Virus record (IMG/VR): IMGVR_UViG_2695420421_000007
Direction: 5' to 3' (one strand)
DNA: 30,950 nucleotides
Origin: a virus
Taxonomy: Duplodnaviria; Heunggongvirae; Uroviricota; Caudoviricetes
A model generated the notes under the pieces. The model saw only the letters and a program-made list of their open reading frames with translations, had not been told where the DNA came from and ran no database searches. The translations under genes were made by a program, and so were the position numbers. This document shows positions 12,172-19,334 of this stretch, piece after piece. Every line of letters starts with the position of its first letter. Within the stretch, counting starts at the first letter, position 1.

Positions 12172-12696
12172 ATGAAAAAATACGAATACATGCTAATGAA
12201 AGAAGCACTGCGGGCTGGTCTGGCTCCCTGTCCTGTATCCGTAGAAGCTGTTGTTGGGAACACGATTTTCCGAACGCTGCGAAATCGCGTATCCGTGAAG
12301 ATGGTTCACCAACCACCCAAATCTACCAGCATGATCTATCTGCCGCTGCCCGAGGCTATCAAACTTATGCGTTCGCTGAAATTTGCGATTTGGATGCAGA
12401 CACAAATCAACAAAGCGGTGCAAAACACCTTCGTTAAGAGACTAATACCGGAGCTTGCTGCCAGATGTGCAAAATGTACCAGACCCGCACTTCAATTTGA
12501 TCTGTCATTGATTCAACAAGCTACGGAGGCAGAACTGTACCGCCTGTCACCTATCCGTGATGCTCACACGGAAGCATCAGAAATGTTCCGGCTCATGTTT
12601 CAATTTAATTTTGCCGTTCGACGCACACGCGTTCAGGTCAATCGCATGATGCAGGAGCAGGAAGAGTTAACACAGTACAAAGGGGGCAGCCAGTGA
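12172..12696 (+). CDS. Hypothetical protein (174 aa), cos-proximal cargo
   Basis: ATG with GAGGAAAA Shine-Dalgarno; preceded by a small GC hairpin (about 12134-12152). No recognisable domain. Confidence 0.55.
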   Translation: MKKYEYMLMKEALRAGLAPCPVSVEAVVGNTIFRTLRNRVSVKMVHQPPKSTSMIYLPLPEAIKLMRSLKFAIWMQTQINKAVQNTFVKRLIPELAARCAKCTRPALQFDLSLIQQATEAELYRLSPIRDAHTEASEMFRLMFQFNFAVRRTRVQVNRMMQEQEELTQYKGGSQ

Positions 12697-12932
12697 GTAA
12701 TTCAGCACGACTACAGCTTGGTTTTTCACCGCTATCAAAAACCATCGTATTGGCAAAAATGCGTGACTTAGGAGACGGAACAAAACGCCGCGTAGGAAAT
12801 GATCGCGGTCGCGATGTAACCAACGAGGCCGCTCAACTCGTTTGGCATCTAGTCATGGCAGAAGGCGGTGAAATTAATTGGGAGCTGGATGATGGTTCTC
12901 GTATGATTTTGAGGGCCGAGAAGAGTAAATAG
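12693..12932 (+). CDS. Hypothetical protein (79 aa), translationally coupled to the upstream gene
   Basis: GTG start overlapping the upstream TGA (GTGA). Confidence 0.45.
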   Translation: MSNSARLQLGFSPLSKTIVLAKMRDLGDGTKRRVGNDRGRDVTNEAAQLVWHLVMAEGGEINWELDDGSRMILRAEKSK

Positions 12933-12946
12933 CTCAAGGGGGATTA

Positions 12947-13132
12947 ATGCTAAATGATGATGAAGAAGAGCTGCTTATGCAGGAATGGTCGCTCGGTGAT
13001 TATGATAATGGTGAAAATGGGTGCCCGCATTGTGGCCGTTATCGTTTATGTATCTGCCAGAATGGAAAACACAGATGTGAAAAGTGCAATTGGTCTCCGG
13101 AACTTAATGACTACGTGCCGATCGAGTGGTAG
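12947..13132 (+). CDS. Small Cys-rich (putative zinc-ribbon) protein (61 aa)
   Basis: AAGGGGG Shine-Dalgarno then ATG; translation contains CPHCG...CIC...CEKC. The overlapping ORF 12954..13148 is rejected in its favour. Confidence 0.5.
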   Translation: MLNDDEEELLMQEWSLGDYDNGENGCPHCGRYRLCICQNGKHRCEKCNWSPELNDYVPIEW

Positions 13133-13139
13133 AGGTAAG

Positions 13140-13620
13140 TCACACTAGGTGTTTTTTAGTTGATTTTATAAATGCACAATAGTGCACAAATTTGCACAAT
13201 TTTTTTGAACGACTTTTTGCCCTTCCGGCCCGCGTGGCGGCTGGATCCGTCAAGGATCCGTGCATGCACAAAAAAACGCGTTTTTTCTGCGCGCAGGTGA
13301 CGGGGGAACAGCCCGCGTTTCAGGGGGTAAATAGCATTCCCTGAACGATGTCGCAGAGATACAACAGAATGGCTGTATTTCTCACGCTGAGCGTGAAAAA
13401 GACGTGAGGGCTTTTGATTTGATGGGGTGAAAGGTAAGGCCGTCAAAATCGCACTGAGACGGCGAGAATATGCAGTCAACGAGGTGGGATTGCGTAAGAG
13501 TCTGACTGTCGATGATGGCAATCAGCAGGAAAGCGTCGTGAAATTATCTGACTGATACAGGAGCTGGAGAGTCGGGGCATAAATTTTTTATGCCCCGGCG
13601 AAGCAGCAGACAAGCGAAGC
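13140..13620. other. Non-coding cos-proximal region (candidate cos / packaging site) between cargo genes and portal gene
   Basis: About 480 bp without credible ORFs in the position P2 cos occupies next to Q. Contains a triple direct repeat TGCACAA (13172-13200), a tandem GGATCCGT repeat (13242-13260) and the perfect palindrome AAAAAACGCGTTTTTT (13271-13286). Confidence 0.4.
13574..13596 (-). terminator. Perfect hairpin downstream of the portal gene (possible terminator of the leftward P-Q operon)
   Basis: GGGGCATAAA-tttt-TTATGCCCC inverted repeat 28 bp past the Q stop; no clean T-run, so terminator function is uncertain. Confidence 0.35.
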
Positions 13621-13623
13621 GCG

Positions 13624-14670
13624 TCAGGATGTGGGCTGGGTGTCTAACAGTGCGTAAGGGTTAAAGCGGATCACCTCTTCGCCAAGCCAGTCATTGATGT
13701 GCTTCATGGCCTCCATGACGGGCATCAGCTCGTTAATTGCGTAAACCCGCGCGGCCTTCTCCACATCACCAAACGCACTTTTTTCGCCCGGCATCGCCCC
13801 CATCAGTTGCGGCGGAACGCGGTGCGCAGCCAGCACATCATCACGGGATGCCGCCTTAACATTCATGAACTCATCCTTTGCGGTGATCTGCTGGAACGGC
13901 AAAATTTGCACCCCCTCTTTGCCCCCGTTGGGCGCATGAATGAGCACGTTTTTAAACGCACCACCACCACGTGCCCCCTGTAGCGTTTCTTTCAGGGAGT
14001 CCATGCTTTCGCGGTTTACCTGCGCTGCACCGATGTAGATGATGCACCCGGCGTGGGATCCGTTGTCGTAGTACAGTTTTCTGAACATGTCCGCCGAATG
14101 AGAAAGGCTGGCCGAGAGTAATGCGCCAAGATATTCCGGCATGCCGTAGATTTCCTGGTTAATATCCGGATTCATCAGGTGGCACACTTTGCCAGGACGA
14201 AACTGAAACGCATCCTTGCCATCCTGCACATACCACCATGATTCAAGATCGCTTCCGCGTCGCATGTATTTCGCCAGGGCGTGCCGTAATTTAAGCGGTT
14301 CGCCGAGCATATTGCTCCGAAGCTCAAGGAATGCGTTACCGAACACAAACCAGTCCAGCGCCAGCGCCGAGAAATCCTGCCGGGAAAGCAGCGGGTGCGG
14401 AATATAGCAGCCGAGCAATACATTGCGCTTAAAGTAAAGCGCAGACTGATGCCAGGACGTTTGCCGGGCAGCTCTTGCCAGACCGTACCAGTCCACCGGG
14501 GTTTCATACCACCGCCCGTTATCAGCACAGTACATATTGTCCAGCAGGTCATGCCCGGTCAGGCGGTAAGGACCATCAAATGTGAATGCACTGAGCGACG
14601 ATTCTTTCCTGAGCGCATCAGCGAGATCAATGCGTGAACTCATGCGCACTTTTTTATTTTTTCTGCTCAT
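13624..14670 (-). CDS. Q: Capsid portal protein (P2 gpQ-like, 348 aa)
   Basis: Translation parallels P2 Q as recalled from memory (WYE.PV...GLAR, LDWFVFGNAFLE, PDINQEIYGMPEYL, VIRFNPY..LDTQPT); start overlaps the P stop. Confidence 0.88.
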   Translation of the reverse strand: MSRKNKKVRMSSRIDLADALRKESSLSAFTFDGPYRLTGHDLLDNMYCADNGRWYETPVDWYGLARAARQTSWHQSALYFKRNVLLGCYIPHPLLSRQDFSALALDWFVFGNAFLELRSNMLGEPLKLRHALAKYMRRGSDLESWWYVQDGKDAFQFRPGKVCHLMNPDINQEIYGMPEYLGALLSASLSHSADMFRKLYYDNGSHAGCIIYIGAAQVNRESMDSLKETLQGARGGGAFKNVLIHAPNGGKEGVQILPFQQITAKDEFMNVKAASRDDVLAAHRVPPQLMGAMPGEKSAFGDVEKAARVYAINELMPVMEAMKHINDWLGEEVIRFNPYALLDTQPTS

Positions 14671-16421
14671 CAGAACTCCATAACCGTGAAACGCTCGTTT
14701 TCTCCTTCGCCGCCAATCGGTTCGTTAATGACAGCAAGCATGGTTGCCCACGCAAGGTCGCCGTGGCTGATCCCCCTCGCGCGGTCCGTTTCGTAAGTGA
14801 TAAAACCGCCCGGTGTTTTCACCTTACGCACGGCGTTAAAGGCCGCAACCAGCTCGCGTTCGGCGCGATCGTATTCCCACCGCCCGGCACGCATTATTTG
14901 CAGCATTTTCAGTACCAGCGACCGTTTTGATGACAGCGTGAAGGTGTAAGGGATGGCGGCGGGAAAAAACCGTTTCACTATCTGATAGACGGCATCCCCG
15001 TGCCCGCCCGTCGCATCAATGCCGATGTGTTCCACGTTGTAGCGATACGTGAACTCTTCAATAACTCTGGCCTGCTCTTCAAATTCCAGCCCCTGAACGC
15101 GTCGCGTCTCCACCGTTCTGAAACGACCACCAGGAACAGCCGGAGGAACCACCACGGACACAGCGCCGCTGTCGCCGTTACCACTGCTGCCGTTTGCGTC
15201 ATACCCAATCCATACCGGACGATTCCCCATCGGGCGGGGGGCAAAGGGTTTCCAGTCTTTCCAGTCGTCGTATCCGTCAACACCGCAGCCAATCAGGATA
15301 TTCAGGTTAAATGCCGATTCCCCTTCGCGGACAAACTCACACATATAGAGATTGCGGAACTCGTCTTCGGTGTTTTCATCACGAATTTCATCAATATCGG
15401 TGTGTTTCCAGCCGTGATTAACCACATCTTCCAGCGTGACAATTTGCCGCCACGTCCGGTCAGGGCAGATAAGCCCGTTATGCAGCGTTTTCCAGTCCAC
15501 AGAAAAACGCTGGCGTTTATGCGCGGCCTTTTTCTCGTTCCAGCGGTCGCCGTTCCAGTAGGCGTATGCCTCGTGCGTTTCGGTGGATGGCGTGGAGAAG
15601 CAGGTGCGCCGCAGTCCGCTGAGGGTTGCCATAGCGCCAGCCACCTTGCGCAGTTCAGCAAAGCGACTGACCCAGAAAAATTCATCAAAATAAAAATTGC
15701 CCGTGTAAGATTGCGCCGTCGCAGCAGAAGTGCCGAGAAAATGCATCTCTGCGCCGTTGGAGAGGATGATTTTATCGCCCCCTTTCAGCTCCACATCGAC
15801 TTCAGCCGCGGCCTTCTGAATAATGCTTTTAAACTGGAACGCCTGACGACGCGACGCAGACAAAAAAATCTGGTTACGCTGGTAAGGTTGTGCCACATCG
15901 TCACGCAGCGCCATCAGCAGTGCTTCCTGTGCAAAATACCAGGTCGCCCCAATCTGTCGGGATTTCAGGATCATCCTGTTACGTATCCCGGCTTCCCTGC
16001 AAAGCGTCAGGGAGTCAAACCAGCCCCGCTGATGCCACTCCAGCCTGCTGATGATTTTTTCCCGCAGTGCGGCAATCTGTTCCGGCGTGAAATGATTTTT
16101 GAGTTTTTTCGCCCGGCCTTTCTTTCCTGTGGCCGTCGCATCCGGCTGGCCATCATGCAGTTTTTTAAGCTGCCGGGTCAGCAGGTCTATTTCCTTAAAG
16201 TCACCACCTGTTTTATTCTGTTTTTCAGTAAGCTGGATGAGGCGCGCATCGATGGACTGCGTGACACGCTGCACGGGTGGCGTTTCATCCCACTGGTCGC
16301 GTTTTTTCCACGCATAAATCGTGTTCGGGTTTATTCCCATCAGACGTGATATTTCTGCGGGCGGATAACCCTGCCAGTAAAGTTGCCGCGCACGCTGGCG
16401 CACAAAAGCGTCCTGAATCAT
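14670..16421 (-). CDS. P: Terminase large subunit / ATPase (P2 gpP-like, 583 aa)
   Basis: Size and synteny (divergent from O, upstream of Q) match P2 gpP; translation is consistent with a terminase ATPase/nuclease. Confidence 0.88.
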   Translation of the reverse strand: MIQDAFVRQRARQLYWQGYPPAEISRLMGINPNTIYAWKKRDQWDETPPVQRVTQSIDARLIQLTEKQNKTGGDFKEIDLLTRQLKKLHDGQPDATATGKKGRAKKLKNHFTPEQIAALREKIISRLEWHQRGWFDSLTLCREAGIRNRMILKSRQIGATWYFAQEALLMALRDDVAQPYQRNQIFLSASRRQAFQFKSIIQKAAAEVDVELKGGDKIILSNGAEMHFLGTSAATAQSYTGNFYFDEFFWVSRFAELRKVAGAMATLSGLRRTCFSTPSTETHEAYAYWNGDRWNEKKAAHKRQRFSVDWKTLHNGLICPDRTWRQIVTLEDVVNHGWKHTDIDEIRDENTEDEFRNLYMCEFVREGESAFNLNILIGCGVDGYDDWKDWKPFAPRPMGNRPVWIGYDANGSSGNGDSGAVSVVVPPAVPGGRFRTVETRRVQGLEFEEQARVIEEFTYRYNVEHIGIDATGGHGDAVYQIVKRFFPAAIPYTFTLSSKRSLVLKMLQIMRAGRWEYDRAERELVAAFNAVRKVKTPGGFITYETDRARGISHGDLAWATMLAVINEPIGGEGENERFTVMEF

Positions 16422-18533: not shown

Positions 18534-19334
18534 ATGATTACTCCTGCACAGCAACACTGGCAGAACGTGATGGCACAGCGCGCAGGCCGGGCGAATGAAG
18601 GTGTGGACCACGCCGCGCGTACCGCGCATGAAGAGGTGCTGTATCGTCTGCGTCTGGCACAGGCCCGGCTTAAGGGCGTACAGGCCAGAAGCGCGAAAGC
18701 CGACATCAAAAAAGCGTTGTTGCCGGACTTTTCCGGCTGGATTGAGGGAACGCTGGAGGCTGACGGCGGGCAACAGGACGAAGTGATTGCCACGCTGATG
18801 GTGTGGGCGATTGACTGCGGCGATCTTCCGCTTGCGCTGCGTATTGGTGCGTATGCGGTCCGTCACAACCTCATCATGCCGGATAACTTTGGCCGTACTG
18901 CTGCCACAGTGCTGACCGAAGAAATCTGCAATCCGGTACTGACGCAGGCCGGGACGGATGCCGACGCGGATTTGTCCGTCTTTATCGAACCACTGGACAC
19001 ACTTTGGGAAATTGTCGCCAACCAGGATATGCCGGACGAAGTGCGCGCCAAATTATGCAAGGCGTGCGCCTTTGCCCGCCGTGGCCTGAGCGATGCGGAC
19101 AGCATGGCCTCATCACTGAAGCTGCTGCGCGAAGCGATGCATCTGAACCAGAACGCAGGTGTGAAACGCGAGATTGCAACCCTTTCCCGCGCCCTGAAAA
19201 AAGCCGATTCCGCAGCCGCACCAGAAGACGCCAGCGCACAGCAGGCGCAGGACGAAAGCAGCGAAAGTAAAAAGACAACGCGGAAGCCTGCAACACGAAA
19301 AACCACCGCGACGCAGAAGGCGAAGCGCGGTTAA
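18534..19334 (+). CDS. M: Terminase small subunit / endonuclease (P2 gpM-like, 266 aa)
   Basis: Block ADMPDEVRAKL and QNAGVKREI with a basic C-terminal tail parallel P2 M as recalled. Confidence 0.88.
   Translation: MITPAQQHWQNVMAQRAGRANEGVDHAARTAHEEVLYRLRLAQARLKGVQARSAKADIKKALLPDFSGWIEGTLEADGGQQDEVIATLMVWAIDCGDLPLALRIGAYAVRHNLIMPDNFGRTAATVLTEEICNPVLTQAGTDADADLSVFIEPLDTLWEIVANQDMPDEVRAKLCKACAFARRGLSDADSMASSLKLLREAMHLNQNAGVKREIATLSRALKKADSAAAPEDASAQQAQDESSESKKTTRKPATRKTTATQKAKRG

Follow-up and report, generated by a model that had tools for sequence, protein, structure and literature searches.

The segment between positions 13173 and 13335 of the analysed DNA (30,950 nucleotides in all, the window) is very probably the cos site of a P88-like prophage of the P2 family, built in the same way as the cos sites of phages P2, 186, and P4 (Table 1). 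As we read it, the site would be composed of three TGCACAA repeats (R1–R3) with a T-tract after them, about 65 bp of spacer sequence that is free to vary, a fourth repeat (R4) followed by an A-tract, and, about 20 bp further on, the sequence GCGCGCA abutting GGTGACGGGGGAACAGCCC at the predicted nick. The site is a P2-family cos that has the architecture of the family and differs in its repeat word and end sequence; it is ordinary in kind. A cos or packaging function had been proposed for positions 13140–13620 in a sequence-only reading. That proposal is borne out by the position next to genes Q and P, the conservation of the site, the module shared with P2, 186, and P4, and the presence of the same module in satellites, but the sequence likened there to a cohesive end and the details of the motifs are not. 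All four motifs of that reading are present, at positions shifted by 1–2 nt; only the TGCACAA triplet is conserved, and the others are lineage-specific.

Table 1 Features of the predicted cos region and of the neighbouring packaging genes in the window
Feature	Position	Strand	Description
R1–R3, TGCACAA ×3	13173–13199	+	−123, −113, and −103 from the predicted end; proposed terminase recognition sites
T7 tract (AATTTTTTTGA) directly 3' of R3	13200–13206	+	conservation of at least 98% in 111 unique relatives
Semi-conserved TTTTTGCCCTTCCGGCCC block	13214–13231	+	partial conservation in alignments of relatives
Variable spacer	13232–13262	+	contains CGCGTGGCGG (13231–13240) and the GGATCC-N5-GGATCC dyad
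R4, TGCACAA (13265–13271) with A-tract	13265–13276	+	31 bp 5' of the predicted cohesive end
Palindrome AAAAAACGCGTTTTTT	13271–13286		conserved A-tract of R4 in the left half; right half lineage-specific
GCGCGCA, left flank of the predicted nick site	13289–13295	+	conserved, including in set B, fetched independently of the core
Predicted cohesive end (cosN) GGTGACGGGGGAACAGCCC	13296–13314 (±2 nt)	+	predicted from position, conservation, and the bridging prophage
Right flank GCGTTTCAGGGGGTAAATAGC	13315–13335	+	conserved in the E. coli lineage and the NCTC9082 satellite
Non-coding spacer between cos and the Q terminator	13336–13572		includes a 42-codon pseudo-ORF (13427–13555)
Predicted P-Q operon terminator	13573–13597		perfect 11-bp stem, 3-nt loop, A/T-run flanks; 27 nt past the Q stop
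Portal gene Q	13624–14670	−	from the ORF map; 47% identical to P2 Q
Large terminase gene P	14670–16421	−	44% identical to P2 P; N-terminal helix-turn-helix (Terminase_5, PF06056)
Small terminase gene M	18534–19334	+	PF05944; 36% identical to P2 M

The window is a P88-like prophage (genus Xuanwuvirus, P2 family). In BLAST comparisons the region is 92–97.5% identical to P88-like phages of this genus, and it was detected in 1148 of the 5426 complete E. coli genomes. With two exceptions, the BLAST matches to phages start at 13171–13173, where the first TGCACAA begins (13173), and the sequence 5' of this point is a variable gene hotspot among the relatives. An accessory-gene hotspot beside cos is known for P2-like phages (PMC9122126). 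The site occupies the location typical of the P2 family: it is flanked by the right-end hotspot and, at a distance of about 290 bp, by the 3' end of Q, and adjoins the divergent packaging operons P-Q and O-N-M. According to the ORF map, genes O, N, and M are on the plus strand beyond P, and N is 41% identical to its P2 counterpart. The Pfam domains of the terminase are of the P2 type (PF06056, PF03237, PF17289, and PF05944). The portal gene is located 200–1000 bp 3' of the core in 120 of 133 core-bearing loci. The cos site is without annotation in the 18 matching phage records, and the literature searched makes no mention of a cos site for P88.

Upstream of cos are replication gene A, a ParM/ParR pair, and small ORFs. 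The genes for ParM (PF06406 and PF21523, 10836–11795) and a ParR/StbB-like protein (PF10784, 11665–12111) are placed between gene A and cos. They constitute an actin-type plasmid-partition pair inside an integrated P2-like prophage, and 53 of 99 relatives have the pair upstream of cos. An ORF encoding a DUF7446 protein (12693–12932) and a 61-aa zinc-ribbon-like ORF with a CxxC...CxxC pattern (12947–13132) are situated directly 5' of cos and belong to the variable hotspot.

The three TGCACAA copies recognised in the sequence-only reading are located at 13173–13179, 13183–13189, and 13193–13199. Their period is exactly 10 bp, and the triplet is therefore positioned on one helical face. A fourth copy on the same strand, R4, had been overlooked; it is conserved too and follows 72 bp, or about seven helical turns, past the triplet. 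A phased triple 7-mer occurred in none of 2000 dinucleotide-preserving shuffles of 13140–13620, whereas the number of TGCACAA copies in the 31-kb window is nine, against 8.3 expected. It is the clustering and phasing of TGCACAA, rather than the word, that is non-random.

The conservation of the repeats was determined in 110 IMG/VR loci fetched by the core 17-mer alone (set A), in which conservation of the core is built in by construction. R4 is present in 108 of these loci. The strict R1–R3 triplet was found in 92, the others carrying variants of 1–2 nt, mostly in one site. The distance from R1 to the core in the 92 strict-triplet loci is 123 bp in 86, 122 bp in five, and 124 bp in one. The same 17-mer had 120 matches in metagenomes, of which 54 are cos regions and 66 are chance matches devoid of repeats; the latter provide a natural control for the association of the repeats with the core. 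The 54 metagenome cos loci contain R4 in 51 cases (at −31 in 49 and at −30 in two) and the triplet 122–123 bp from the core in 48. The repeats are probably terminase-binding sites. The T7 and A7 tracts, both conserved, flank the variable spacer. The T7 tract 3' of R3 is likely an intrinsic bend or a host-factor site; by eye, it contains at best an imperfect IHF-like match.

In Bryobacteraceae MAGs, each genome contains many phased TGCACAA triplets with a period of 10 bp, often accompanied by a second cluster at a distance of 80–100 bp; such triplets are also found in Bacteroidota, Bacillales, and other groups. A tblastn search found no P2-type packaging genes near the triplets of these unrelated phyla. 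The occurrence of the triplets there implies that the TGCACAA word is not specific to packaging.

The proposed comparison with the cos regions of P2 and 186 revealed TGCAT sites at matching offsets, and 13289–13314 aligns in position with the P2 end. Offsets were counted from the first nucleotide of the 19-nt ends annotated in the GenBank records of P2, 186, and P4. The TGCAT sites are at −123, −111, −101, and −29 in P2, and at −124, −111, −101, and −29 in 186 and P4. If the end starts at 13296, the TGCACAA repeats of the window are at −123, −113, −103, and −31. The P2-family pattern of TGCA(Y) at approximately −123, −112, −102, and −30, a feature that we extracted here from the three records, is thus reproduced in the window. 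The counterpart of R4 in P2, 186, and P4 is TGCATTAAAA at −29. Between P2 and P4, sequence identity is 53% in the repeat block, 17% (about random) in the spacer, and 83% in R4 and the nick flank; the repeats are the only similarity in a stretch that is otherwise at random identity.

The cos sites of P2, 186, and P4 have 19-nt 5' cohesive ends and a conserved core of 55 bp (Ziermann & Calendar 1990, cited in PMC5694545 and PMC9594776). The distal triplet is not annotated in the records of the three phages. The literature covered, of which Ziermann & Calendar 1990 and the P2 review by Christie & Calendar are not part, yielded no description of the distal triplet, which is outside the 55-bp core, or of the 3+1 TGCA array, which is partly outside it. 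Nor did the literature searched contain binding or footprinting results for the P2 TGCAT sites.

The window resembles P2, 186, and P4 in the position of cos at the 3' end of Q beside an accessory-gene hotspot, in the 3+1 TGCA-containing sites with a third-to-fourth spacer that is free to vary, in the A-tract after the proximal site, and in the G-rich cohesive-end block flanked by GCGCGC. The terminases are homologous (gpP with the Terminase_5 helix-turn-helix, gpM with PF05944), and the site is likewise common to satellites. However, the repeats of P2, 186, and P4 are TGCAT(T/G) at spacings of 12–13 and 10 bp, whereas those of the window are TGCACAA at a strict 10 bp. The ends of the three phages, which read GGCG(A/T)GGCGGGGAAAGCA(C/T), are annotated in their records, whereas the window end GGTGACGGGGGAACAGCCC is predicted from sequence alone. 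P2 has a CCGCCCC...GCGGGCG dyad left of the nick, in place of which the window has an A-run and a T-run, and cos is separated from the Q stop by 168 bp in P2 but by about 310 bp in the window.

The block GCGCGCA-GGTGACGGGGGAACAGCCC (13289–13314), which had also been overlooked, is invariant among relatives. In an alignment of the window, P88, the more distant Enterobacter phage phiT5282H, a divergent prophage of E. coli 23CRST028, and the satellite of strain NCTC9082, there are four invariant elements: the triplet with the T-tract, R4 with the A-tract, GCGCGCA, and GGTGACGGGGGAACAGC. The conservation of the core is tested by set B alone, which was fetched by the repeat pattern alone. The genome scan with this pattern returned mostly unrelated phyla; among the matches listed, 14 enterobacterial loci were usable, comprising 10 named genera and two mislabelled or contaminant records. 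The core 17-mer is exact in 10 of the 14 loci, has one mismatch in three, and is more divergent in one.

The canonical 19-nt end is absent from the interval 13140–13620. Its best ungapped match to the P2 19-mer, 13/19, is at 13296–13314; scores of 13–15/19 occur elsewhere in the window, so that 13/19 alone is not significant. For this reason, the assignment of the end rests on position, conservation, and a bridging sequence. In the 23CRST028 prophage, TGCACAA is located at −121, −111, −101, and −29, and position 0 is taken up by GGCGAGGCGGGG, which corresponds to nucleotides 1–12 of the P2 end. Identity to the window is 67% for terL, 67% for the portal, and 51% for terS of this prophage, against 46, 45, and 37% to P2. 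It thus combines membership of the TGCACAA clade with the P2-type GGCGAGGCGGGG, and links the core of the window to the nick site of P2. The offsets of the repeats, the bridging prophage, and the satellites together lead us to predict the cohesive end at 13296–13314 (±2), rather than at 13231–13240, and the predicted end is a diverged variant of the P2-family end. An overhang of 19 nt and 5' polarity are assumed by analogy with P2. The earlier caveat that the exact end is not fixable from sequence alone holds: no virion-end data for the P88-like clade were found in the collections or the literature searched, and the viral, metagenome, and genome scans contained no phage record or contig that ends cleanly at the core. 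The full core strings had no match in a phage or cos context in the literature searched, where an 11-nt fragment appears in four unrelated papers only. One satellite-type MAG contig, contig_64826 (12,723 bp), stops inside the core (...GGTGACGGGGGGACAG), after which come 9 nt that resemble a Nextera adapter (AGATGTGTA); either an assembly artefact or a physical end of the DNA could account for this, and we gave it no weight.

A very unlikely alternative is that the region is a cos site that is cut near 13218 or at CGCGTGGCGG (13231–13240), with 13289–13314 serving as a binding site. A cut near 13218 would agree with the linear record LR595891 (P88_4B11), the sole record that is cut inside the region, which ends with ...GAACGAATTTT and starts with TGCCCTTCC..., corresponding to 13217/13218 of the window. 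That junction, however, is not at a conserved element, and no paper on the record or its linearisation was found. CGCGTGGCGG, which the sequence-only reading had likened to a cohesive end, is present at 13231–13240, shares GCGTGGCGG with the end of 186, and the 19-mer of 186 matches at 11/19 positions from 13231. We rejected it as the end: it is about 65 bp 5' of the conserved core, within the variable spacer, occurs in 29 of the 110 set A relatives only, and is replaced in the satellite. Both candidate cuts would fall in the least conserved part of the module, where the satellite and other genera have unrelated sequence despite retaining the repeats and the core, whereas the ends of P2, 186, and P4, placed relative to their TGCAY sites, correspond to 13296.

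The remaining motifs are in or beside the variable spacer. GGATCCGT, described as a tandem repeat in the sequence-only reading, is present in two copies (13243–13250 and 13254–13261), the starts of which are 11 bp apart, and is hence not strictly tandem. The pair is at the same time a dyad, GGATCC-N5-GGATCC, because GGATCC is self-complementary. An 8-mer direct repeat within 15 nt occurred in 110 of 2000 shuffles of 13140–13620, and the pair, taken alone, is only marginally unusual. The 16-bp sequence AAAAAACGCGTTTTTT is a perfect palindrome as had been stated; a perfect palindrome of at least 16 bp occurred in 19 of 2000 shuffles of the same interval. Neither motif qualifies as a conserved element, the GGATCCGT pair being found in 72 and the palindrome in 37 of the 110 set A relatives. 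The position of the palindrome is occupied by AAAAAACGGTGAGTTTTT in the NCTC9082 satellite and by AAAAAACGAAGCAAATGT in phiT5282H, and the spacers of the satellite, phiT5282H, and 23CRST028 are unrelated in sequence to that of the window. The tendency of the spacer to form hairpins is weak (mean z = −1.2 in related sequences). In our reading, the GGATCCGT pair, the palindrome, and CGCGTGGCGG are lineage-specific filler within or beside the spacer. The pair contains two GATC sequences (13244–13247 and 13255–13258), of which only the second is widely kept. Among 111 unique relatives, at least 90% preserve this Dam site, about 41 bp 5' of the predicted nick, despite the variable spacer. GATC is absent from this position in P2, 186, P4, and the NCTC9082 satellite, and its conservation at about −41 is a difference that sets the clade of the window apart from the three phages.

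Elements that have no portal or terminase genes of their own carry R1–R4 and the core with identical spacing, whereas the sequence of their spacer differs. One of them is located next to hpt in E. coli NCTC9082 and encodes an Icd-like protein, an 889-aa Toprim primase, an integrase, an Ogr/Delta zinc finger, and a 423-aa capsid protein of the P2 family. No portal, terminase, or tail genes were found in this element, and its family has no recognisable Sid or Psu. Between its integrase and ogr genes is an 80% identical copy of 13173–13338, in which R1–R3, R4, and the core are spaced as in the window and the sequence of the spacer differs. Relatives of the element were found in Erwinia, Apirhabdus, and Kluyvera, and in metagenome contigs. 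Satellites must borrow the terminase of a helper and keep only the proposed functional parts, which provides the strongest non-experimental argument for function. The presence of the module in these elements leads us to propose that the terminase of the helper can package them. Members of this satellite family are about 10 kb or more in length, and their 423-aa capsid protein has an N-terminal extension of about 120 aa. The capsid homologue is 35–38% identical to that of the helper, and its gene is situated about 2 kb beyond cos. None of the candidate full-length satellite contigs showed overlapping termini.

It is very unlikely that the TGCACAA repeats are iterons unrelated to packaging, such as a ParM/ParR centromere, the binding site of a hotspot regulator, or a weak R2/R3 terminator. 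The presence of the ParM and ParR/StbB-like genes upstream, together with the fact that partition centromeres are made of phased repeats, is compatible with the first of these. The phased triplets in unrelated phyla that have no P2-type genes are in line with a role other than packaging in general. However, 46 of 99 repeat-bearing cos loci contain no ParM homologue within 4 kb upstream, and the distance between repeats and core is fixed at 122–124 bp irrespective of which genes are upstream, on which grounds we rejected the ParR-centromere idea. A terminator prediction program called a 5-bp hairpin with a T-run at 13182–13206, but this weak call reflects just the palindromes of R2 and R3. Furthermore, the repeats are kept in satellites that have a different replication module, P2, 186, and P4 have TGCAT at the same offsets, and between P2 and P4 the repeats alone stand out from sequence at random identity.

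Most improbable is the alternative that the prophage is defective and its cos a relic that is out of use. Nothing specific speaks for it, beyond the fact that prophages are often defective and that only 31 kb are visible here. By contrast, R1–R4, the tracts, the core, and the spacings all match the consensus of the family, genes Q, P, O, N, and M are all full-length ORFs, and close relatives such as P88 are inducible, P88 being also infectious (PMC5285337). The match of every element to the consensus and the inducibility of P88 make a relic unlikely.

We propose that all four repeats would be bound by the terminase from the same helical face. The subunit that reads the repeats may be the small subunit gpM, or the reading may be performed by the N-terminal helix-turn-helix of gpP. 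The A- and T-tracts would help to bend the spacer, and thus enable the distal triplet and the proximal site to cooperate. A terminase oligomer in contact with both sites across the bent spacer would place the nuclease of gpP on the invariant block, where staggered nicks by gpP would generate the 5' cohesive end predicted at 13296–13314 (±2 nt). The terminase of the helper may package satellites carrying the module in the same manner. Tentatively, and with somewhat less than even confidence, we suggest that the 3+1 phased TGCA array is a general terminase module of the P2 family, and that TGCACAA and the changed end define a separate packaging-specificity group with dedicated capsid-encoding satellites, the matching between helper and satellite being encoded in the repeats.

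The cos of phage lambda is organized as cosQ-cosN-cosB, has repeats R1–R3 for the small terminase gpNu1 and a site for IHF, and produces a 12-nt overhang. The window resembles it in function only, in that a nick site has several short terminase repeats on one side, with bending of the DNA between. However, neither the terminase families nor the sequences are related, and in the window the repeats and the packaging genes are on opposite sides of the nick. The terminase encoded in the window is P2-type, and neither an Nu1/gpA terminase nor an IHF consensus between R sites was found. Variation of the end sequence within the P2 family is already known, for example from Ralstonia phage phiRSA1, the cos of which is 5'-GGTGAGGCGGGGTCCAAC (PMC5694545). 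Like the window, phiRSA1 has a P2-family cos with a cohesive end that starts with GGTGA and G-rich sequence, but it belongs to another clade and infects another host. Its end shows that the end sequence of the P2 family drifts (PMC5694545).

P88-type prophages are very common in E. coli, and prediction of their cos gives the correct genome ends for annotation. In the design of cosmids and transducing particles of the P2/P4 type, the flank that matters would extend from about −123, the distal triplet, to about +40. Longer cos flanks improved transduction in an engineering study, the reason for which was not known (PMC9594776). The cos variant is also a sequence marker for satellites that depend on P88-type helpers, and TGCAT and TGCACAA are a natural specificity pair for studying how terminases of the P2 family read DNA.

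In the rest of the interval, 13336–13620, an Rfam scan of 12900–13700 detected no RNA element, the only match being to a snoRNA below the threshold, and a promoter/terminator scan detected no promoter. Some phage records, including those of P88, list the 42-codon ORF as a CDS. We rejected it as a gene: its variable sites are distributed 22/22/21 over the three codon positions and hence show no bias, and a frameshift or internal stop is present in 5 of 37 distinct translations (7 of 63 unique sequences). An ORF across cos (13264–13344) and a 121-aa minus-strand ORF were considered spurious because they span the conserved non-coding module. Hypothetical CDSs across the core and the spacer between cos and Q, which are very likely spurious, are annotated in KP063541 (P88; 2594–2737 and 2757–2885) and LR595891.1 (205–333). 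The hairpin at the end of this spacer is the counterpart of P2 tQ, which is annotated at the same relative place.
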